Shown: piece after piece, positions 4,121 to 61,285 of the stretch
How the letters are laid out: every line of letters starts with the position of its first letter
Numbering within the stretch: position 1 is the stretch's first letter
IMG/VR virus record: IMGVR_UViG_3300019874_000003
Source of the DNA: an uncultured virus (IMG/VR IMGVR_UViG_3300019874_000003)
Lineage: Duplodnaviria; Heunggongvirae; Uroviricota; Caudoviricetes
Direction: 5' to 3' (one strand)
Length of the DNA: 64,000 bases
Translations under genes and position numbers: made by a program
Notes under the pieces: generated by a model
Seen by the model: only the letters and a program-made list of their open reading frames with translations
Database searches by the model: none
What the model was told of the DNA's origin: nothing

Positions 4121-5113
4121 TCAGTGAAAGCGGACGTAGATCTCCAGCGGACCAGACGTCGCCGGAATGAACGAGGCGGTCGGAATCGATACGGTCATGG
4201 TCGCCAGCGCGACGGTACCGTTCAGCGAGAATGCCCGGCCACCGATGATGGTGGAGCTCTGGGTGAGAGCCACGTTGTTGCGTGCGATCAGCGCGCCTCG
4301 GAAGTCGGCGGAGTTGCCAAGCGTCGCGTCATCGTTGATCACCCAAAACACCCGATTGGAATCACCATCGTTCACAAGGCTGACGGTCCCCGCTGCGGCG
4401 ACGGCTAGGTTGCCGTGGACCTGAAACACGAAGATCACGGTCGGGTCGTGCTGGAAGTCCAGCGTCAGGGTGCCGTTCAGGACGGCGTCGGCATCGAACC
4501 GATAGACCCCACCAGTGAGAACCAGACCTCCGAGATCCTGGCCGGATAGGTTCTGGCTCGGCGTGATTCCACCGAGCATAGCCCAGGCAACCGTCGCATC
4601 GCGGATCGCAGCCTGTGCCGTCGCATCGCCGCTGTGGATGGTGCCGCTGGCGGTACCCGGCGGAAATCCGGTGACCGCGCCCGGCCACGATCCGACACTT
4701 CCGGTGATTCCCGTGTTGCCGGTGTTATTCACCGCGGTGGAGCCCAGGATTCCGAATGGAACCGCGGTCCCCAGGATACTCGAGGCACCGTTCCCGTTGG
4801 CATTGCACAGGGCAATCAGGAAGTCGCGCGGCGTGGCCCCGCTCTTGGATATGCTGATGGGGATCGCGAAGTACACGCCGGCGCAAAGCAGCGTGTTGCA
4901 GGTGACCTGGATTGCGCCAGGGAGGGTGACGTCAGCATATGCCGCCGGCATGAACCGGGCTGGCAGCACGATGTCGGGGACCGCGCCGTGAAATGGGATG
5001 GTCGAGTCGTGGAGGCCGATCGTTCCGACCGCACCGGGCGCGAGCGAGACGCCGCTCACGCGCACGAGACCGTCGGACACTTCTTCTACGAGACCAGTTC
5101 CGTTGAATGCCAT
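4121..5113 (-). CDS. Putative virion protein carrying an inserted DUF3494 (ice-binding-like) domain
   Basis: FGILGSTAVNNTG, LSGQDLGGLVLTGGVYRF, LNGTLTLD, FVFQV, NRVFW, FRGALIA and GRAFS are DUF3494 hallmarks. The flanks are homologous to 62926-63285. Confidence 0.85.
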   Translation of the reverse strand: MAFNGTGLVEEVSDGLVRVSGVSLAPGAVGTIGLHDSTIPFHGAVPDIVLPARFMPAAYADVTLPGAIQVTCNTLLCAGVYFAIPISISKSGATPRDFLIALCNANGNGASSILGTAVPFGILGSTAVNNTGNTGITGSVGSWPGAVTGFPPGTASGTIHSGDATAQAAIRDATVAWAMLGGITPSQNLSGQDLGGLVLTGGVYRFDADAVLNGTLTLDFQHDPTVIFVFQVHGNLAVAAAGTVSLVNDGDSNRVFWVINDDATLGNSADFRGALIARNNVALTQSSTIIGGRAFSLNGTVALATMTVSIPTASFIPATSGPLEIYVRFH

Positions 5114-11544: not shown

Positions 11545-12285
11545 TCACCGGATCGCGCCAGATAAATCGATGGTGGGACGCTGTGGACCGGGCGCGCGGA
11601 TCGCCTCGCCCAAGTCCTTGGTGCCGGCGGGCTTCTGGAGGATGCGGTAGTGGATAGGCACACCGTCCTCGTAGAGGTCGCCGGCATCGTTGCCGGAGAA
11701 GAAGACGTAGCCGTCGACGAGGTTCGGCTGGTTAGCGCGGACCCACTTGAACACGTCGACGCCTGACATCGTGCCCAAGATGTCGACGTCGGAGATGACG
11801 AGCTTCACGTCGTGGGCCTCGAGGTTCGCGATCGCCGCCGGGCCGTTGTCCGAGACGATCACTTGCGCGTTCGGGTATAGCCTTTTGATCATGCGGGTCG
11901 TCGAGACCTGCTTGGACGGCTCGTCCTCGATGAGCAGCACCCAGAGCTCGTCGCTGTCGCCGTTGCGGCGTGCTGGGTTGCGGATGTCGCGCTCGCCGCC
12001 GTCCCACTCGAGTTCATCGCCGTCCAGCGACACCGCAAACCTGGGCACCTTCATCTGGGTCACGAATGGCTGGCCAGGCGTCATCGCAAATGCGACCAAA
12101 TCCTCTCCGGACAGGCCACCCGGGAAGCGGTCCGCCAACCTGGTCAGATCGGCGTTGTTCATGCGCTCGTAGAGCTCGGCTAGATCGCTGGCCGCGTCCA
12201 CGGCACCGCTCGGCGTCGCGCCACGCCCGCCGGTCGCTGACCAGATGGCCGCCGCCATGTCGCTGATGAGGCTGCGGCCGTGCAT
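11545..12285 (-). CDS. Protein with a C-terminal response-regulator receiver domain
   Basis: VLLIEDE...LVISDVD...MSGVDV...VFFSG...LQKP retains the acidic pair, phospho-Asp, Ser and KP. Preceded by RNPARRNG. Confidence 0.75.
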   Translation of the reverse strand: MHGRSLISDMAAAIWSATGGRGATPSGAVDAASDLAELYERMNNADLTRLADRFPGGLSGEDLVAFAMTPGQPFVTQMKVPRFAVSLDGDELEWDGGERDIRNPARRNGDSDELWVLLIEDEPSKQVSTTRMIKRLYPNAQVIVSDNGPAAIANLEAHDVKLVISDVDILGTMSGVDVFKWVRANQPNLVDGYVFFSGNDAGDLYEDGVPIHYRILQKPAGTKDLGEAIRAPGPQRPTIDLSGAIR

Positions 12286-17147: not shown

Positions 17148-17723
17148 TTACTGCACGTCGCGGGTCTGGAGACCGTCGAGCATGTACTGGATGTTCTTGA
17201 CGTCGTCGGTCGCGCCGGCGTTCAGGCCATCCAGGGCCGAGGTCGCGCCGATCGCGAAGAAGTCCGCCGACGCAGCGAAGTTCTGGCGAACCGGCACGAT
17301 GATCGGCCGGGCCAGCTTGAGGATCGCGCCCTGCTCCGGGGTGCCGTTCGAGAACACCGACGAGGTGCTGTCGAAGCCCCAGACGCCGCCGCCGGCGGGG
17401 TGGTACCAGCACGGCGCCTGGAACATCGGCTTGTTGCCGACGGTCAGAGTCCAGAACAACTGCGACGTCACGTTGACGTAGTTGTCCCGCCTGTTGGTCC
17501 CATCGAAGAACAGGAACGAGCGCAGCGCCAGGATCACATACGTCTGATCCGACGCGAGCTGTCCGGCGGTCTGGAGGTTGGTCAACGCGAGGTTGCCGAT
17601 GTTCGCGTTCCCGAACAGCTTCGTCGAGTTGATGATCGGTGAGGTCGGATCACCGGTCGTGCGGATGAGAGTGTCCCAGATCGGCTGGTGGAGGCGCTCG
17701 CGGTATCCATGAAGACGGGGCAT
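17148..17723 (-). CDS. Putative major capsid protein (single jelly-roll-like, 191 aa)
   Basis: QPIWDT...LFG...TNLQTAGQL...PIIVPVRQNF...YMLDGLQTRDVQ. Beta-rich, with highly biased codons, at the centre of the structural operon. Fold inferred. Confidence 0.65.
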   Translation of the reverse strand: MPRLHGYRERLHQPIWDTLIRTTGDPTSPIINSTKLFGNANIGNLALTNLQTAGQLASDQTYVILALRSFLFFDGTNRRDNYVNVTSQLFWTLTVGNKPMFQAPCWYHPAGGGVWGFDSTSSVFSNGTPEQGAILKLARPIIVPVRQNFAASADFFAIGATSALDGLNAGATDDVKNIQYMLDGLQTRDVQ

Positions 17724-17849: not shown

Positions 17850-19406
17850 TCAGCGCGCGGACCATCCGCCGTTGAAGATCCCGCCGTAGAGCTGGCCAGG
17901 GTGGTCATACGCCGCGCCCGCCGCGGGGATCATCTTCGTGAACGATCGCGCGGGGACCGGCTGGAGGAACGATTGCGTGGGAACGGTAGCCATGAGGCCG
18001 CCGCCGCGCACGCCGCCCAGAAGGTCGTTGCCGAGTTCCTCCTCGACGCCGAGTTCCTCCTCGAGACCGAGCTCCTCCTCGACGCCATCGCTGCCGACCG
18101 CGATGTAGTCGGACAGCGTCATGCTGTCGTTGATGGGCGTCGCGCCGACCGCGATGTAGTCACCCATCTGGATGTAGTCGGACATCCCGATCATCGCCTT
18201 GATGCTGGCCGGCGCGAATGCCTGGATCAGCGACTCGGCCAGCGCGATGCCAGAGCCCAGCAGCAGCGCCTCCTTGTGCTTCGCGATGGCGGCCACCTTC
18301 TTGGCTCCGAAGTTAATGCCCACGACGGTCGCGAGCGCCAGCACCGGGTTCGTGAGCGTGCCCAGCGCGGACACGCCCGGGATCATCGGCCCGATCTTCG
18401 ACACGAGCAGACGCGTTCCGTAGAACGCCGCGAGAACCGGGATCGCGCGCTTGGCCAGGTCGACCAGGAATCCGCCGGGGTTCCGGCGGTACCGGCGGCT
18501 GTAGCCCCGCCGCGCCGACCGGCGATGCCGGCGTCGGCTCGACCGGCGATGTCGGCGGCTGGACTTCCGCCGGCGGCGCCGGCTTGGGTTCATCTTGAGG
18601 GTTCCGCCCGCGGTGTACATCCGCGACGGCGGGCCCATGCGGACCGTGCGCGCCGAGTGTGCGGAGACGCGCCGGGTTCGCCGAGAGCGCCTGCGCTTCG
18701 GGGTCGACGAGCGCCGCGCCCGACGCCGGCGCTTGGTGGTCGTCCGGCGCTTGGTGCGCCGAGCGCGGCGGCGCTTCGGGGCGACGGTCGTCGCCTTGCG
18801 AGCGCGACGGCGCTTCTTGGGAGCGCCACTCCGCCGCTTCACCCGGCGGGCGCGGCTGCGCGTGCCATGCCGCTTGTCACCGGCGCGCCGCTTGCGCGTC
18901 TTGCCGGGGCGGCCCCATTTGCCTGCCTTGCGTCGGGCGGCCTGATAGCGCCGCAGGCCCTCCGGCTGTCGCTTCTTCCGTGCCATAGATGTGCTCCTGC
19001 GGGCTCGACGGCCACGCTTGACAGATTTCTTGCGCCGCTTCCCGGGCTTGTAGTTCGCGTGGATCTTCGCGATCGTCCGGTCGAAAGCCGCCGCTTGCGC
19101 GGACGACATCCTTCGCCGTGGCTTCACCCGCTTCCGCTTCGCCGGGTTTCGCTTGGCGAGTCGGACCATATGGCCGTACTTTGTGACCCCGCCATATTTC
19201 TTGTAGTCGAGGCCCAGCTTCGCCTTGCGGTACTTCGGCCGCGAAGTGCTCGTGTGCTTCGTACTGGCTTCCCAGGTGACAAAGTTGTTGCCCTTCCCGC
19301 CGGGCGGAAATGGGTTCCGCCGCGCCCTGCGCCGGCTGGTCGTCACCTTCGCTCGTCCGCGAATCCGTAGACCGCGCCGCTTGCCGTTGACGAAGAGGAT
19401 GGGCAC
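17850..19406 (-). CDS. Arg/Lys-rich (protamine-like) core protein fused to a membrane domain and acidic tail
   Basis: About 345 very basic residues punctuated by RRNP/KRNP/KMNP/RRNP, then hydrophobic helices, DYIAVG x2 and EEELG x3. Confidence 0.75.
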   Translation of the reverse strand: MPILFVNGKRRGLRIRGRAKVTTSRRRARRNPFPPGGKGNNFVTWEASTKHTSTSRPKYRKAKLGLDYKKYGGVTKYGHMVRLAKRNPAKRKRVKPRRRMSSAQAAAFDRTIAKIHANYKPGKRRKKSVKRGRRARRSTSMARKKRQPEGLRRYQAARRKAGKWGRPGKTRKRRAGDKRHGTRSRARRVKRRSGAPKKRRRARKATTVAPKRRRARRTKRRTTTKRRRRARRSSTPKRRRSRRTRRVSAHSARTVRMGPPSRMYTAGGTLKMNPSRRRRRKSSRRHRRSSRRRHRRSARRGYSRRYRRNPGGFLVDLAKRAIPVLAAFYGTRLLVSKIGPMIPGVSALGTLTNPVLALATVVGINFGAKKVAAIAKHKEALLLGSGIALAESLIQAFAPASIKAMIGMSDYIQMGDYIAVGATPINDSMTLSDYIAVGSDGVEEELGLEEELGVEEELGNDLLGGVRGGGLMATVPTQSFLQPVPARSFTKMIPAAGAAYDHPGQLYGGIFNGGWSAR

Positions 19407-19702: not shown

Positions 19703-20227
19703 TTATGTGCGCCGGCTGGGTGCGTACCTGTCGTACAGCTTCTCGAGCACGGCGCCGATCTTCTCGTTGGCCTCGGCGGCCTTATTGGCGACGACTTCCA
19801 TGTTGGCGGTGTACTCACGCCGCGCCGTGATCTCGTTCTCGCGAGCTATCTCGTAGAGATCGGTGATCGTAGTGGCGTGCTTCTCCACGGCCTCACGGAG
19901 CTTGCGCTCGTACTCGGTGTGAGACTCACGGAGGCGGCGATCGGCCTCCGCCTGGAGCTCGCGGATCTTCTTGTCGAAGTCGGTTCGAAGCTCAACTCGC
20001 TCGAGTGCCCACGCAGAGCGTTCCTTGGCTTGATCGGCGAGCGCAGTCTGGCGCTCCTTGGCTTGTTCGTCGTCCCGCTTGCGCCGCTCGTCTTCGACCG
20101 CCGTCATGCGGCTGGAATAGTACTTGAACAAGAACACAACGGTAGCGGCGAGCGCCGTGACCGCTATGCTTAGGATCACAACCATCGAGGTTGGCGTAGG
20201 AAGATCGGTGCCAGGCGTGGGAATCAT
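19703..20227 (-). CDS. N-terminal TM plus coiled-coil protein
   Basis: One TM segment followed by a long charged helix. Confidence 0.6.
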   Translation of the reverse strand: MIPTPGTDLPTPTSMVVILSIAVTALAATVVFLFKYYSSRMTAVEDERRKRDDEQAKERQTALADQAKERSAWALERVELRTDFDKKIRELQAEADRRLRESHTEYERKLREAVEKHATTITDLYEIARENEITARREYTANMEVVANKAAEANEKIGAVLEKLYDRYAPSRRT

Positions 20228-20739
20228 CCGTCAATACCTCGAGCGAATACGCCCAGGCCGCCTCCCCACATCATGGCGAGTACCTTCGAGCGTGACTGGA
20301 TCACCAGAAGACACTTGCCGTCCGGGGTCGTGTACAGGTCCGGCATCGGCATCGATCCCTCGGCTTCGCACTTGTCGCCGGAGGCGTCCTCGAAGCAGAA
20401 GCCAAGGCACACACCAAGCCGAGTCAGCGCCTCGACGTCGATGAATCGCGCTGGGACATCCACCACTGCGCCGTCGTCGCTCGGCGAGCACGGCAGGTAC
20501 GTGTTCACACCGACGTCGTGCTCATGGATGTAGCTGATCGCGTTACGCGGCTTCTTGAGGGTCTCCGGGTCCGTCTTGTTCGAACTGTAGGTGACCCATT
20601 TCGCACGCCCAGCGATCTGCATCTGCGCGGGAATGCGGAACGATGCCGGGAACGCACCGACTTTCTTGGGCTCGTACCGATGGAACTCTACGTACTTGTC
20701 GATGGCGGCACGCGCGGCGTCTGGGGTCTTGCGGGTCAA
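20224..20739 (-). CDS. Hypothetical globular protein in the morphogenesis operon
   Basis: Overlapping start/stop codons with both neighbours. Confidence 0.6.
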   Translation of the reverse strand: MTRKTPDAARAAIDKYVEFHRYEPKKVGAFPASFRIPAQMQIAGRAKWVTYSSNKTDPETLKKPRNAISYIHEHDVGVNTYLPCSPSDDGAVVDVPARFIDVEALTRLGVCLGFCFEDASGDKCEAEGSMPMPDLYTTPDGKCLLVIQSRSKVLAMMWGGGLGVFARGIDG

Positions 20740-25016: not shown

Positions 25017-25628
25017 TCAGGCCACGATCGGCCACGATGCCGCGGCCTTGATCCGCCGCAGCATTTCGGGGGTTTTCTCCGCAGCGACCGGATCAAGGAC
25101 GATCTGGCACCGGGTGCGCGGCTCGAGCGCCCGCGTGAACACGTGAGAGTATTGCTGCGTGCCTTCGAAGAACATCTTCGCGAAGGCAACCGTCATGAAC
25201 TCAGCCTTGCCACCGACCGCAAGCACTGCAGCGGCTAGCCAGGTCGCCATGTCGTCGCAATCGAGCGACGGCCGGTGGCCGGCCATGATCTGCTGGCTCA
25301 CCAGGTACGGCGCGCGAACGAGCTCGACGCGGCGCGGGTCCCGCATGTACCGAGTACGCTGTAGCAGGAAGTGGTACAGCGCAGCATACTCGGACGTGTA
25401 GTCCTTGCTATCGAGGCCCTCGCACACCGACTCGGCGAGTTGCCGGGTGTCGAAGTGGCTGGCGTCCTCGAGCACGGCCTTGCGCATGACCGCGATGGTC
25501 TGCGGCGCGCCCGAGTACTCCATCTTGGAGGTCGGCGCCTGGTCCGGCAACCAGAACAGACGCGCCCCGCCGTACCCACCACCCGATAGAGAGGGCGGGA
25601 TTCGAACGTTATGTCGGGGGCCGGTCAA
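25017..25628 (-). CDS. Transglutaminase-like (Cys-His-Asp) protein, candidate maturation protease
   Basis: RYMRDP..VELV, LDCDDM, YSHVF, VLDPV. Confidence 0.8.
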   Translation of the reverse strand: MTGPRHNVRIPPSLSGGGYGGARLFWLPDQAPTSKMEYSGAPQTIAVMRKAVLEDASHFDTRQLAESVCEGLDSKDYTSEYAALYHFLLQRTRYMRDPRRVELVRAPYLVSQQIMAGHRPSLDCDDMATWLAAAVLAVGGKAEFMTVAFAKMFFEGTQQYSHVFTRALEPRTRCQIVLDPVAAEKTPEMLRRIKAAASWPIVA

Positions 25629-25660: not shown

Positions 25661-27364
25661 CTACTCGGTCGTCGGAGCGGTTCCGACGAGCGCCTTCCCG
25701 ACCTTGCGGACCCAGTTGCGTCCGCCTTGAGATGCGAGGGGAGAGGTGCTGGGCAATTTTGCCACCTTAGAGAGGAAGAGGTCAACGCCATTGACCGAGT
25801 CGTTGTCATGGCCTTGGATCCACGACAGTATGTCGGCCGGCAAGATGGCCCGGCCGCTCTGTGCGACGATCACCGGGTCCTGCCCTGCGGTGAATGCCCG
25901 TTCGAGGTAGCTGATGACGTTGGCGATCTGATCCAGCGGGATGTCTGGCAGTTCGAGCTGTGATCCATCCTCCTGGGTCACCACCTTGGGGATTTTCTTG
26001 ACCGGAACCATCGAGCCGTCCGGTTGCCGGATGAACTTGTCCCCCGTCGCCCGCGAGCGGACCACGCGCGGCGCTATGACCTGGGCCTGGATCGGTGGAG
26101 CCGGCGGTGCTTCCTTTTTTTGGAACAGCCCCGCAACCGTCGCCACGGCCTCCGGGTTGGTGATGAGATCGGCGAGCTTGTCCATGCCGGATTTTTCCGT
26201 CTCCTCGCCGACGCCGATCGCCTCCTTCAGAGCGTTGATGTCCTTCAACTGTTCGAGCAGTGGTTTGTCCTTCTTCTCTCGGAGCTCGCGGACCTCCTGG
26301 CGAAGCTCGGTGTTGTCCCGCTCGAGCCGCGCGATGTCTCGGGTCAGCGTCGCCACCTGGATACCTTGCGATGCGCCGTTGGCCTGGTCGGAGACCTGCT
26401 GAAGATGCCGCATCGCCGCGATTTCCCGCTCGTAGCTGGACTTGAGGCTGGCAAGAGCCAGCTCGTGCGACTGGCGTAGCGCCGCGACCTCGCGATCGTG
26501 GCGGTCATGGACCCGGGCCATGTCCTGGTTCGCCGATTCCTTGAGCTGGCGGACCTCCGCCTCCTGGCGAAGCCTGAGCGCCTCCACCTGGCCGCTGTTC
26601 CCATCCATCAAGGACGTGAGGAGCTTGTCCTTGATAGGGTCCACTTCGGGCTTCTGGTTCGCCATCGTGTCGATTCGCGCCTGGAGGGACGTCAGCTGTT
26701 TCTCGCGCGTCTCGGCTTGGCGGTTCATCTGGTCGATCATCTGCTGCATCGCCGGATCGATGCCGCGCGGTTGCTGCGCGGCCTGAGCGCGCTCGAGTTG
26801 AGCGCTCATCACGCTGAGCACCTCCTTGACGATGGTCGGGCTCGAACCGGAATCCTGGGAAACCGGCGGTGGCGTCGAGTTCTGCGCGTTGGGCAGACGC
26901 TCGGTGCTCGGATCGCCGGCGATCTCGATCGTCCGATGAGCGTCGAACACGAAACTCCCCTTGGAGTTCTTCTTGGAGATCCGCAGCTTGTACTTGCCGC
27001 CGCCGAACTCGCGCTTGATGTACTCCTCATCGACGATGCAGTCGACGGTATCGAGGTGGCCGTCGGTCTTGACCTCCTTGCCATTCACGCGCACCGACCG
27101 AGGCAACTCGCGATGGATGGCGATCTTGAACGACCCCTGTGGCCCGATGGCGTCCAGGACTTCCTTCAGAGATTGGTCCTCCTGAGTGCGGATCGACTGC
27201 ACGATGGGCGAGACGCGCTCGACCGGCGCCAGCTTCTTGCCCTTGACCTCGGGCGGTTTCTCCGCGACCACGACCACGTCCTCACCGTCATCGTCACCCT
27301 CGATCGGTGGTATCACGATCTGGTCGTCGTCGGGTTCGGTCACTGTGGTGATCGGCGTTCTCAC
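25661..27364 (-). CDS. Large coiled-coil protein
   Basis: 567 aa; FGGGKYKL domain followed by a long heptad-rich region. Confidence 0.7.
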   Translation of the reverse strand: MRTPITTVTEPDDDQIVIPPIEGDDDGEDVVVVAEKPPEVKGKKLAPVERVSPIVQSIRTQEDQSLKEVLDAIGPQGSFKIAIHRELPRSVRVNGKEVKTDGHLDTVDCIVDEEYIKREFGGGKYKLRISKKNSKGSFVFDAHRTIEIAGDPSTERLPNAQNSTPPPVSQDSGSSPTIVKEVLSVMSAQLERAQAAQQPRGIDPAMQQMIDQMNRQAETREKQLTSLQARIDTMANQKPEVDPIKDKLLTSLMDGNSGQVEALRLRQEAEVRQLKESANQDMARVHDRHDREVAALRQSHELALASLKSSYEREIAAMRHLQQVSDQANGASQGIQVATLTRDIARLERDNTELRQEVRELREKKDKPLLEQLKDINALKEAIGVGEETEKSGMDKLADLITNPEAVATVAGLFQKKEAPPAPPIQAQVIAPRVVRSRATGDKFIRQPDGSMVPVKKIPKVVTQEDGSQLELPDIPLDQIANVISYLERAFTAGQDPVIVAQSGRAILPADILSWIQGHDNDSVNGVDLFLSKVAKLPSTSPLASQGGRNWVRKVGKALVGTAPTTE

Positions 27365-46897: not shown

Positions 46898-47506
46898 CTA
46901 CTGATAGCGAGCGCGGCCAGAACCGACGAGGTTGGCGATGATCTCGCGGAAGTGCTGGTTGCACAGCGCCTGCGGGTTCCGGGTGCGACGTACAAGCGTC
47001 ACGAGATCGTCAGCACTCATCCTGGTCACGCGCGCGAGCGCCAAGCTTGCGACCAGCGCGGCCCGGTTGATGCCGGCGCTGCAGGTCACCAGAATGCGCT
47101 GACCGGCGCTGAGCGACTCGGCTACTGCCCTGGAGGTCATGAGAACCCGGGCGATCTGCCGCGGCTCGAGCCGGGCATCTGGGATCGGGCAGCGCACCGC
47201 CCGACCATGGAACGCCACGCGCTCTGGTTGTAGTTCCTGAGCACACAGCACCAGCATGTCGAAGTCTGGAAGGTCGCGGTCGAATGGTGGCTTGCCGCCG
47301 ACCCAGAGCCGCGTCGACACCTGAGAGGCGTCCAGCGTGTCCGTGGCGCTACCAGCCAGCTTCCGGCGGCGCTTCTCCGCGGAGACCCATCCGCCGCGCT
47401 GCGCGGCCGGCGCGAGCTCGTGACGACGGCAGAACAAGCTCCCGGGCAGCCGGGCATCGGGGCACATGGTGCGATCGCCAACGGGCGCGATGCACGTCTC
47501 GCTCAT
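46898..47506 (-). CDS. Dual-specificity/protein-tyrosine phosphatase-like protein
   Basis: RLWVGG...PIPD...ILVTCSAGINRAA (CX5R). Confidence 0.85.
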   Translation of the reverse strand: MSETCIAPVGDRTMCPDARLPGSLFCRRHELAPAAQRGGWVSAEKRRRKLAGSATDTLDASQVSTRLWVGGKPPFDRDLPDFDMLVLCAQELQPERVAFHGRAVRCPIPDARLEPRQIARVLMTSRAVAESLSAGQRILVTCSAGINRAALVASLALARVTRMSADDLVTLVRRTRNPQALCNQHFREIIANLVGSGRARYQ

Positions 47507-50589: not shown

Positions 50590-51966
50590 ATGAACGACAG
50601 CCGTGACGCCGTCATCATCGACATCATCAACGACGCCGCGCGCCAGGTCGCCACGGGACCTGGACGGAGAGTGGCGTGGATCCGAGACGTCTGGAACCAG
50701 ATCATCCGCAACGGCAAGTCCGGTGGGATGCCGTACGAGGACTTCAAGCACGATCTCGAGCGGCTGTACCGCGCAAGGAAGATCTCCTTGGCGCCAAGGC
50801 CAACCGTCCGCGGTCTCCAGTCGATAGAGGCGGATGAGTCCGAGCTCGACATCGATGGCCGGCTGCTCTACCTGATCAACATCCCCGAAGAACATCAGCG
50901 CAGCAAGCCGCGGCCGGCACAAGCTGGGGATTTCGCCAACAGCGTGCTCGAGATCGCGCGCAGCGTGGGTCCCGGCTTCGGCGACCGGAGGGTGTTCATC
51001 GGCGACATCTGGGCACAGGCACAACACGTTCCTGAGTTCCGCGCGATGGGCGATCAGGAGTTCAAGCGTCGGCTGATCGCCGCGCACCAGGCAAGCCAAC
51101 TTGTCTTGTCGCGCGCGGACCTCGTCAGTGCGATGGATCCTGACAAGGTCGCTGCCTCGGAGACCGTCGGCAATGGAGCGACGTTCCACTTCGTCAATAT
51201 CGAGCCGGTGAAGCGTAGGAACCCAGCACGCCGGCCAGGCAAGAAGTCCCTTCCACTTGTGCGTAACCCGCCAAAGTGGGTGTCCGAGATGATCGCCGGT
51301 TCCTACGAGACGCTTGAAGACACAGTGCCCCCCCGGTGGCTACCCAAGCTCACCAACATCGAGAGCCTGGGATCCGGGATCGCTGGCGATACCAAGGAGT
51401 ACGGCTGCGGTGCTTACGGTTGCGTGTTCCCGACGATGGATGAGCACGTCGTGATGAAGGTTACGCACGACGATACTGAAGCGGAGTTCGCAGCCCGGAT
51501 GTCAGCTACGCTCGTCGCGCCGATCTGCGTCAAATACCACCTAGTCCTAAAGCTCGACGCGGAGCATGACGGCCACGGCGTCTACCTGCTCTGGCGGGAC
51601 AGTGCCTCGTGGGTGGGGGATCTCGACGCATACCTCGACGAGAAGTTCGATGACCCCAATGCCGGCGACGAGTTCACGCGGCTCGTCAACAGCCAACACG
51701 ACGCCGCGAAAATGGCGATGGTCGCCCTCCACCGCAACTCGCCGCCGAACGTGTACAAGCCGCTCCTCAACCGCTGGGAGCGCATGCTGCGCAAGATGGC
51801 AGAACAGGACGACATCCCGCAGTTGGCCGAGTTGGCTGCTGGCATGCTGGAGGTCTACCTCGAGCAGCACATCGCCATCCTGGACGTCCACTCCGGAAAC
51901 ATCGGGATGGTCGGAGACAGGTGGGTCATCACCGACCCCGGTCACGTCGTCGTCATCGAACAGTGA
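50590..51966 (+). CDS. Multidomain protein: tandem duplicated domain, RRNP linker, protein-kinase-like domain
   Basis: YGCGAYGCVF, VVMKVT...E, DVHSGNIG, ITDPG; linker KRRNPARR...VRNP. Confidence 0.75.
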   Translation: MNDSRDAVIIDIINDAARQVATGPGRRVAWIRDVWNQIIRNGKSGGMPYEDFKHDLERLYRARKISLAPRPTVRGLQSIEADESELDIDGRLLYLINIPEEHQRSKPRPAQAGDFANSVLEIARSVGPGFGDRRVFIGDIWAQAQHVPEFRAMGDQEFKRRLIAAHQASQLVLSRADLVSAMDPDKVAASETVGNGATFHFVNIEPVKRRNPARRPGKKSLPLVRNPPKWVSEMIAGSYETLEDTVPPRWLPKLTNIESLGSGIAGDTKEYGCGAYGCVFPTMDEHVVMKVTHDDTEAEFAARMSATLVAPICVKYHLVLKLDAEHDGHGVYLLWRDSASWVGDLDAYLDEKFDDPNAGDEFTRLVNSQHDAAKMAMVALHRNSPPNVYKPLLNRWERMLRKMAEQDDIPQLAELAAGMLEVYLEQHIAILDVHSGNIGMVGDRWVITDPGHVVVIEQ

Positions 51967-59658: not shown

Positions 59659-60158
59659 GGTTCGGCTGTATAGCATTGCGATGTGACATAGCTGACACCC
59701 GAGATCTTCACGCGCTCAAGTGATCGTCAGACCGGACAGGTACGAAATGGGTATGTATCGCGCGTCCGCCGCTCAGGCTGAGGTGACACTGTCCATCGAG
59801 GTCGTCTGCCATCACTGCCAGCGTCCACGGGAGCGCTCCGACCGCGCGCTGGTCGACGTATTCTTGGTCATGGATCCAGGCATCGACGGCGTGCCATGGA
59901 TGCTGTGCGGAAGATGCTGGTTAGCCTACCTGAAGTTTGAGGGCAACCTGGCTGCGATCGGTGGCAGGGTGCTCGAGTTGCCAGTGGCTACGACGATCGA
60001 GATCGCGAAGCCCGCCCCCGGGCCTTCCGCGAGGCCCCCTACGCCGTAGAGGTGGCTCTAGACCTTGAACTAGAGAGATGATGGCACGTCGTTCGCCATC
60101 AGCGCGGCGCCCTTGAACTTACCGCCCGGATGGGGGTACCCTAGTGACACGGAGAACC

Positions 60159-60773
60159 ATGGCCCGATCCAAGATGCATCGGCGATACGTCAAGAGCAAC
60201 CCGGGGCCCAAGAGCAACCCGCCGTTGTTCACCGAGCTCCTGGAGTTCGCCGGCCCTGGTTTCGGCGCCTTTGCGGCAACCAGACTGGGGACGCGCATCG
60301 CAGCCACGCAGGTTGAGAAGTGGAAGCCCTCCTGGGGGAAGCACGCCGGCGCCGTCGCGTCGGTCTCGGCGTTCCTGGCGGCCTGGTTCCTTGGTCACCG
60401 GGTGAAGTTCCTCGCGAAGTACCACACGCCGATCACAGTGGGGGCGGGGATTGCGATGGCGCAGTCGCTGATTCAGCTCTACATCCCTCAACTCGGCTGG
60501 ATGGTCGCGGATGCCACGCCCGAGCTCGCGGCGACCGCGGCAAGCAACCTGACCTCGGATGCGACCATGCTGACGGCGAGCAGCGACCTGCAGCCGACGG
60601 ACGATGACCCCAACGAGTTCACGTACAACGACCAGTTCGATGCCGGCCGGTTCAGCAAGATCAACCAGTCCCCAGGGCAGAGCCCGCCGTTCGTCGCGCC
60701 GCACGACAGCGCAGATGTTGCGATCGACGATGCAATCGGACAGAGCGCCAACCTGGGCGTGTTCTCGAACTGA
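60159..60773 (+). CDS. Membrane protein paralogous to the membrane domain of the Arg-rich core protein
   Basis: KSNP x2 leader; AFAATRL...AKY...GAGIAMAQSLIQ aligns with AFYGTRL...AKH...GSGIALAESLIQ. Confidence 0.7.
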   Translation: MARSKMHRRYVKSNPGPKSNPPLFTELLEFAGPGFGAFAATRLGTRIAATQVEKWKPSWGKHAGAVASVSAFLAAWFLGHRVKFLAKYHTPITVGAGIAMAQSLIQLYIPQLGWMVADATPELAATAASNLTSDATMLTASSDLQPTDDDPNEFTYNDQFDAGRFSKINQSPGQSPPFVAPHDSADVAIDDAIGQSANLGVFSN

Positions 60774-60775
60774 CC

Positions 60776-61285
60776 GTGCAGGCCCCGGAGGCACTGTTCC
60801 ACGGCTCAAAGGCTCGACTCGAGGTCGGCGCCGCGCTTCACGCGCGCCGTACACCGAACGGAACCTTCGGGAAGGGTCTAGAGACGTTTGTCGAGTCGCT
60901 GCGACCGCCAAAGTGCTCGTCGCGGCTCGAGTCGTTCTACATGGTGGATGACCCTAGGTTGATCCGTGTAGCCGGTGGGGTGCAGAACTTCATCTACCGC
61001 CTCGAGCCGTTCGGCATGTTCTCGAAGCATAATCAGGGCTGGTTGAGTCGGATCTACGACGCGCTGATCTATCACTTCATCGGTCGCGAGGTGCTCAGCG
61101 GGGACGAGCTTCATGGTCGCCTGCGTGCAGCGGAGGCGTGGGCATGGAAGTACTGGGACGGGTCGCCGTGTCCGGATCTGCGCCCGCCCAATGTGGAAGT
61201 GTGGGAGTATCTGGCATCGGACGTGCTCGTCGTGGCATGCGAATACAACGGCGAGTGGTGGTCCGCGGACATCGAAGAGGAGTGA
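60776..61285 (+). CDS. Possible ADP-ribosyltransferase (Arr-like N-terminus)
   Basis: LFHGSKARLEVG...FYM...FIYRLEP.G...EYL. Confidence 0.45.
   Translation: MQAPEALFHGSKARLEVGAALHARRTPNGTFGKGLETFVESLRPPKCSSRLESFYMVDDPRLIRVAGGVQNFIYRLEPFGMFSKHNQGWLSRIYDALIYHFIGREVLSGDELHGRLRAAEAWAWKYWDGSPCPDLRPPNVEVWEYLASDVLVVACEYNGEWWSADIEEE

Follow-up and report, generated by a model that had tools for sequence, protein, structure and literature searches.

Why does a short Asn-Pro mark recur along a predicted DNA-packing protein of an uncultured virus, and what is it doing ahead of a kinase-like and a receiver domain in the same genome? The question concerns the window, that is, the whole 64,000-nucleotide stretch analysed here, which represents bases 1-64,000 of a 72,108-bp virus record. 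The original prediction took the pattern [RK]xNP for a second signal that divides the Arg-rich region of the protein at 17850-19406 and marks domain borders elsewhere. We read the mark (NP below) as a maturation cleavage site that would free DNA-bound peptides and cargo domains, and from the sequence evidence we give this a rough probability of 0.55. The observations behind it are that the motif is conserved, where it is placed and that it is confined to one class of proteins, together with a single-jelly-roll-like capsid model and a search in which no conserved packaging ATPase was found. The core protein and its marks are arranged as follows.

17850..19406 (-): core protein, 518 aa, predicted to pack DNA; Arg/Lys-rich residues 1-309, then a hydrophobic domain, then an acidic tail.
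19311..19316 (-): Asn31-Pro32, in RRNP; long form of the core protein only.
19143..19148 (-): Asn87-Pro88, in KRNP; long form only.
18585..18590 (-): Asn273-Pro274, in KMNP; opens the last poly-Arg segment (36 aa, 21 Arg and Lys).
18477..18482 (-): Asn309-Pro310, in RRNP; edge of the hydrophobic domain.
18984..18998 (-): Met141, an internal start preceded by an AGGAG ribosome-binding site 7 nt upstream; predicted short form of 378 aa.

Residues 1-309 hold 128 Arg and Lys against 5 Asp and Glu, a composition that suggests DNA binding. RRNP, KRNP, KMNP and RRNP, which had been said to divide this region, are all in place at Asn31, Asn87, Asn273 and Asn309, and they split it into pieces of 31, 56, 186 and 36 residues. 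Beyond it come a domain of moderate hydrophobicity and an acidic tail in which [LM]G motifs recur. Two sizes of the protein are probably produced, of which the shorter keeps only the last two NP sites: an SD-like sequence precedes the internal Met in 21 of 23 scored homologs (4 more were unscored) and the first start in 7 of the 23.

Core homologs form 200 clusters at E<=0.001, and in related loci the core gene sits directly before the capsid gene. The best 150 of these 200 clusters were retrieved; with the window protein added, 141 of 151 sequences matched a profile of the hydrophobic domain, and the 113 homologs with sufficient upstream sequence were scored for NP. In their basic regions Asn is followed by Pro in 405 of 631 cases, 13 times the expectation (4.8%), and no x-Pro pair other than Asn-Pro rises above 9%. 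The density is 3.6 NP sites per homolog. At the border of the hydrophobic domain the scored segment contains NP in 103 homologs, another Asn-x pair in 9 and neither in 1, Asn thus being kept at 112 of 113 borders. The claim that the last RRNP sits at the start of a membrane domain holds for the position, since hydropathy becomes positive at residues 307-310 and NP is kept there; but the hydropathy peak is just 1.52 (19-residue Kyte-Doolittle window), so the membrane nature of the domain is something that we infer. All eight Asn-Pro codon pairs occur among 128 core sites, which points to selection at the protein level and rules out a signal in the DNA.

Over these alignments the motif is hydrophobic-x-x-Asn-Pro-small, with Asn as its fixed residue. 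A hydrophobic residue occupies position -3 at 55% of the 396 sites in core proteins and at 88% of the 92 in kinases, position -2 is Arg or Lys in the core protein and Val in the kinases, and position +2 is mainly Ala, Gly, Ser or Pro; the preferences at -3 and +2 resemble the profile of a protease site. The second signal of the original prediction is retained as a shared protein-level mark, but its definition was too narrow: [RK]xNP fits 287 of the 405 core NP sites, missing 118, and misses most kinase sites, and it was abandoned. Its enrichment over shuffled proteomes, which had been proposed as a check, is nevertheless real, with 10 matches in the 74 predicted genes of the genome against 2.9 in 300 shuffles. 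When the core protein is left out, the genome of the window keeps 6 against 2.6 (p 0.04), and ten pooled genomes keep 49 against 26.7, which ranks fourth of 376 comparable patterns and means that about half of the non-core matches are chance; individually, the excess reaches p<0.05 in only two of the ten. The caution that isolated matches might be accidental was justified, as those at 27361, 46898 and 61610 appear to be chance occurrences, conserved in just 1 of 12, 1 of 9 and 1 of 5 aligned sequences respectively. Basic core genes with NP are also found in the more distant loci L124, L126, L127, L130, L132, L133 and L136-L138, several of which carry Asn-Arg, Asn-Ala or Asn-Gly as well; in distant clades Asn-Arg, Asn-Ala or Asn-Gly takes the place of Asn-Pro at many sites, and further NP-punctuated polyproteins occur among distant relatives.

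The mark is not confined to the core protein, and the following genes bear on its use elsewhere in the window.

60144..60773 (+): core paralog; basic leader with NP at 60198-60203 and 60216-60221, same hydrophobic domain.
11545..12285 (-): two-module protein with a C-terminal receiver domain (PF00072, E 2.8e-8); linker Asn103-Pro104 at 11974-11979.
50590..51966 (+): fusion of a repeat module and a kinase-like domain (phrog_15752 kinase, E 0.0016); linker NP at 51220-51225 (Asn211) and 51265-51270 (Asn226).
46898..47506 (-): dual-specificity phosphatase-like protein (phrog_10650, E 4e-11), present in 8 of 9 relatives; NP unconserved; possible partner of the kinase.

The two KSNP motifs ascribed to the protein at 60144-60773 are there (Asn19 and Asn25), but this protein aligns with the core's C-terminal domain (28% over 90 aa, E 2e-7; found in 8 of 9 relatives) and, as a paralog, was excluded as independent evidence. 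The IRNP announced before the receiver domain is present, with Asn103 lying 13 residues ahead of the Pfam match (116-229), and NP precedes the receiver in 16 of 16 distinct sequences, whichever module is upstream; the tandem repeat modules that follow the receiver have no NP between them. The RRNP and VRNP announced before the kinase domain are present as well. Among 105 kinase homologs, 101 align from the start of the domain, and NP was sought in the 30 residues ahead of it: 95 of the 101 have it, and the six that lack it include three truncated starts and one Asn-Ser. Within the kinase domains themselves only 4 NP occur in all 105 homologs. One standalone kinase, from genome G005, has no NP.

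It might be speculated that the conserved kinase and phosphatase regulate the Ser-rich basic peptides, as phosphorylation regulates baculovirus P6.9 in the part of the literature cited (PMC5899202). In the distant locus L134, a kinase gene adjoins genes for dual-specificity phosphatase-like and transglutaminase-like proteins.

NP could instead be a structural helix cap or turn at domain starts, carried along passively when modules are shuffled. Asn-Pro is a common helix start. In 78 of 105 homologs a single, constant distance separates NP from the first kinase helix, the NP at the core border precedes a predicted amphipathic helix, and NP is mildly enriched (1.29x) across all these proteomes. 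Yet 8 kinases keep NP at an altered spacing of 17-20 residues, a helix cap does not account for 3.6 NP per protein in low-complexity basic regions, and it leaves unexplained both the NP found after the kinase C-terminus in fusions only and the NP before poly-Arg tails. We consider this reading disfavoured and improbable.

Many of the kinases are fused to other modules; the same module can precede or follow the kinase, NP standing at the joint, and 37 segment clusters surround it in varying order (two of them are kinase remainders, and the segments were cut at NP). Because this picture was drawn by cutting at NP, breakpoints were redefined from alignment ends alone. NP lies within 15 residues of 72 of 128 such blind breakpoints, where random windows give 15.3 (maximum 26 of 500), and it tops 328 dipeptides; many of these breakpoints represent the same homologous kinase border and so are not independent. 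In the genome set, breakpoints of the cargo class have NP at 27 of 59 against 7.2 by chance, and those of the other 1,091 proteins at 25 of 307 against 20.7, which is no enrichment. Fibre-like proteins, an imperfect negative control, have NP at 15 of 45 breakpoints against 4.2, which would suit a helix cap, but the matches trace to two homologous sites inside domains. The rule is also not universal around the kinase: none of 9 joints between the kinase and module M2 has NP, and of 8 kinds of C-terminal partner only 5 are linked to the kinase by way of it. An earlier automatic search for junctions (NP at 11 of 146) was replaced, as false junctions inside capsid proteins dominated its output. 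A lack of conservation at borders in homologs, which was to count against the original prediction, was not seen: the motif is kept at the cited borders and also marks shuffled joints located without its use. This gives good support to a shared protein-level signal.

The relation between the mark and membrane anchors speaks to what the signal might do. Of 12 basic tails that follow a C-terminal hydrophobic anchor in distant clades, 8 have N-P or N-R after the anchor, right ahead of a poly-Arg run; some of the 12 ORFs may not be real genes. These tails are the mirror image of the core protein, the motif standing between anchor and basic peptide in both orientations. The tails of 199 candidate tail-anchored proteins hold only 5 NP where 1.2 are expected; those of the window have no NP tail. 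Between 10930 and 25035 (-), about a dozen small C-terminally anchored proteins start with M-[TSA]-Y, basic residues and [LM]G, a second candidate signal; [LM]G is repeated in the acidic tail of the core as well. A two-compartment rule, with NP inside and [LM]G outside, was set aside as weakly supported over all loci: basic NP occurs 4 times in 3,096 tail residues against 18 times in 39,201, and [LM]G[DAE] 6 times against 148.

These placements have to be weighed against another account, in which NP is never cut and serves as a docking tag that binds a scaffold (the protein family of 20224-20739, the inner capsid face, or the hydrophobic domain of the core) and brings proteins into the particle, extra copies raising avidity. 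In standalone kinases only 5-25 residues separate NP from the N-terminus, so that little would be lost by cutting there, and fused kinases often have two NP 4-19 residues apart. A core homolog in locus L008 (8428-9891, +) carries six NP in tandem 8-10-residue basic repeats right before its hydrophobic domain, and hydrophobic stretches of 5-7 residues at core N-termini often close with NP. A precedent is found in the internal proteins of T4, which, in the passages of PMC3012670 cited here, share just a capsid targeting sequence. For such a tag one copy would suffice, however, and NP is found at nearly every module joint. Its position between anchor and poly-Arg in both orientations fits release rather than targeting; the core and tail proteins being anchored already, release explains the placement and targeting does not. 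The tolerance at the residue after Asn also suits a cut site. We regard the docking tag as a possible but clearly less probable explanation. Judging by a reference title in PMC3012670, processing of the T4 tag does occur, so a tag and a cut site need not exclude each other.

On the cleavage reading, the core precursor would bind and condense DNA and tie the genome to the viral membrane during motor-free co-assembly. A virus-encoded enzyme would then cut precursors at hydrophobic-x-x-Asn-Pro inside the assembling particle. Cutting at or next to Asn, at either the Asn-Pro or the Pro-x bond, would free protamine-like peptides from their membrane anchor, and the same cuts may split apart kinase, receiver and other cargo modules. 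A Pro directly after the cut is avoided by most proteases.

The bonds might also break with no protease at all, through cyclisation of the Asn side chain, slowly or when triggered in the particle. Asn is the invariant residue, no conserved classical protease was found in the ORFs scanned beyond the transglutaminase-like protein described below, and self-cleavage after Asn is known from viral coat proteins and from the Asn-Pro-Thr-His of FlhB/YscU, according to the sections of PMC3207474 cited. The asparagine peptide lyases covered there (MEROPS N1-N11, with FlhB/YscU and reovirus mu-1), which like our preferred reading involve a cut after Asn, including the Asn-Pro of FlhB, need a folded domain and a nearby Asp or Glu and make a single cut in cis. 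Here the sites run to hundreds, in unrelated and mostly unstructured contexts; those of the core lie in low-complexity basic stretches with 5 Asp and Glu in 309 residues, and the preferences at -3 and +2 suggest a binding pocket. Self-cleavage thus appears the least probable of these accounts.

If the sites are cut by an enzyme, the window offers two candidates.

20224..20739 (-): candidate reader or cutter of NP, 171 aa, matching no known family; no NP leader in this copy.
25017..25628 (-): transglutaminase-like protein in which Cys124, His162 and Asp178 are conserved; second candidate cutter.

The 20224-20739 protein has no credible match in Pfam, PHROG, PDB sequences or phage records, its best Atlas score being 0.82. 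Tyr51, Ser53, Lys55, Tyr70 and His72 are invariant in 25 aligned members of its family, which has no recognisable catalytic triad. In all 46 locus records whose flank is long enough, many of them repeats of the same genomes, a family gene is located no more than 2 kb upstream of the core gene, and NP is found at the start of 13 of 40 distinct family sequences. The family also forms the last domain of NP-punctuated polyproteins in L025, L031, L053, L157, L159 and L164, and was once seen fused to a module that is also present on kinases. A weakly related form ends NP-punctuated polyproteins in L135 and L136; in L135, L136 and L143 this form has the same position and a Tyr/Lys/His second half, the Ser not being kept, and hhalign connects it to the family only weakly (probability 17.7, E 0.0014). 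Kinases too end NP-punctuated polyproteins, so position alone does not make the protein a cutter: the options include a protease, an adaptor and an enzyme of unrelated function, for instance a nuclease.

The transglutaminase-like protein (Atlas feature score 0.97 to Transglut_core clusters) had been named as a possible cutter, and it does occur in 7 of 7 near-complete relatives, but the 20224-20739 protein is more tightly linked to the motif. NP stands at the start of transglutaminase-like sequences too (3 of 18), and the enzyme is a candidate for processing the separate M-x-Y...[LM]G leader. In L059 (6995-7846) and L060 (4197-5084, +) its domain is fused to a downstream structural domain that elsewhere has its own gene. 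The trypsin-like protease proposed as the cutter (ORF 63864-64829, crossing the window edge) was rejected, as it has no relative in 9 of 9 related genome records nor in the other loci examined. Were cleavage to occur, the 20224-20739 protein would be our tentative first choice as the cutter, the transglutaminase-like protein a possible second, and a host or other enzyme a weaker third. A bolder proposal, which we hold to be doubtful, is that the 20224-20739 protein founds a new protease class with a Tyr/Lys/His centre, which would act in trans and cut behind Asn, in many cases ahead of Pro. In a large ATPase-less, single-jelly-roll lineage of bacterial viruses (24-179 kb), it would mature a genome core that is tethered to a membrane and condensed by protamine-like peptides, and release shuffled effectors, beside a second pair of protease and motif for membrane-surface proteins.

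What kind of virus would use such a system can be judged from the capsid gene next to the core gene.

17148..17723 (-): predicted major capsid protein, 191 aa, with a single jelly-roll-like beta fold.

The capsid model (pLDDT 83) has one beta domain; a single-sequence model was useless (pLDDT 32). Its best VIA match is Sulfolobus polyhedral virus 1 (SPV1, Portogloboviridae; chain 6oj0_T, Z 8.2, rmsd 3.7, 136 residues aligned), a middling score that ties with other single jelly-rolls (1stm_A, Z 7.6), at 3% sequence identity. SPV1 is archaeal, with a membrane-containing particle, a nucleoprotein core, no known packaging ATPase and a much smaller genome, and we know of no NP system in it. The Odin group also lacks the ATPase but has 7-11 kb genomes and double jelly-rolls, as stated in the part of PMC5894146 cited. 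Among close capsid relatives, 0 of 37 have NP at the start; a putative capsid gene in a distant 35-kb virus (L135, 15382-16203, +) has RKNP in an N-terminal extension whose start codon is uncertain.

Relatives of ORF 17148-17723, at 74-90% identity, are found in 9 viral records of 23-86 kb and 59 metagenome loci, and distant relatives reached via the transglutaminase-like gene (24-51% identity) lie on records of 24-179 kb. Neither the capsid nor the 20224-20739 protein has a match in 50,697 phage records, and no cultured relative was found there. No terminase or packaging ATPase was found among the 80 window ORFs and, in six relatives, 73 of their 128 unshared ORFs; when ten genomes were scanned for Walker A, no motif common to them emerged. 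Genes of the window for lysis-type enzymes (GH25, M23), for a receiver domain and for methylases point to a bacterial host. The mark belongs to a widespread, apparently tailless group of uncultured bacterial viruses; no paper on the lineage or the motif was found in the open full-text literature. Eight contigs of the lineage come from genome bins that span at least six different taxa, and 6 of the eight are as long as a whole virus; that whole-virus-length contigs (L157-L164) fall in bins of at least six unrelated taxa suggests misbinning.

The NP system resembles adenovirus core maturation, T4 targeting and the polyvalent proteins, but differs from the first two in defining features. In adenovirus, cleavage of core precursors by the viral protease AVP loosens the core and its attachment to the shell; as here, basic DNA-condensing precursors (pVII, pre-mu) and other internal proteins have in common a short motif in which a hydrophobic residue stands three or four positions ahead of the cut, according to the sections of PMC4246237 cited. 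The core protein is likewise a basic, NP-segmented precursor, its DNA binding suggested by composition. AVP, however, cuts (M/I/L)XGG-X or (M/I/L)XGX-G (PMC4246237), a consensus that hydrophobic-x-x-Asn-Pro-small does not match, and no AVP-family protease has a Pfam match among the same 80 window ORFs and 73 of 128 unshared ORFs of six relatives. The present lineage also differs in its 191-aa single-domain capsid protein (a model), its core with a hydrophobic anchor of its own, and a host that is bacterial by gene content. The T4 targeting sequence is similar in being a short signal on otherwise unrelated, variable internal proteins (PMC3012670, in the passages cited), but T4 is a tailed phage with a terminase and uses one N-terminal signal, whereas the sites here are many and internal, and no terminase or packaging ATPase was found. 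Polyvalent proteins, which occur in phages and in conjugative elements (Iyer et al., 2017; PMC5512222), have the same mosaic, multi-domain architecture, and in the portions cited they are thought to be packaged and released by peptidases, some carrying a C-terminal peptidase. They rely mainly on an embedded zincin-like MPTase, and no shared linker motif is described in those portions, whereas here one recurring dipeptide separates modules that match almost no Pfam family. Among 70 proteins scanned, no zincin-like MPTase or assemblin-like peptidase has a Pfam match, and HExxH occurs in only 2 single members of widely shared gene families.

If the cleavage reading is right, bacterial viruses of an uncultured lineage follow a strategy like that of eukaryotic viruses, combining protamine-like, membrane-tied DNA condensation, motorless assembly and proteolytic maturation. 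The motif could be used as a tool to predict domain borders and inner-particle cargo in barely annotated genomes, and the two small candidate enzymes, named here with their natural substrates, are testable in E. coli without virus culture. An Asn-Pro-specific protease would, if real, be a new reagent; even as an uncut tag, NP would be an undescribed packaging signal.

Other features of these genomes were observed along the way. Just past the window (64500-65825 of the same record, G000), CRISPR-like repeats accompany a nuclease-like ORF with a zinc ribbon, and the repeats extend into the upstream frame of the trypsin-like ORF. The ORF at 60776-61285 (+), with no PHROG or Pfam match and found in 1 of 9 relatives, has His, Ser-x-Tyr and Glu motifs reminiscent of ADP-ribosyltransferases. 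A relative (L089, 11190-12500, +) encodes a domain of the Acb2/Tad1 hairpin type (PF24729, E 6e-7), which may act in counter-defence, and a fibre-type protein of the window (4121-5113, -) contains an inserted ice-binding-like domain (PF11999, E 5e-41).
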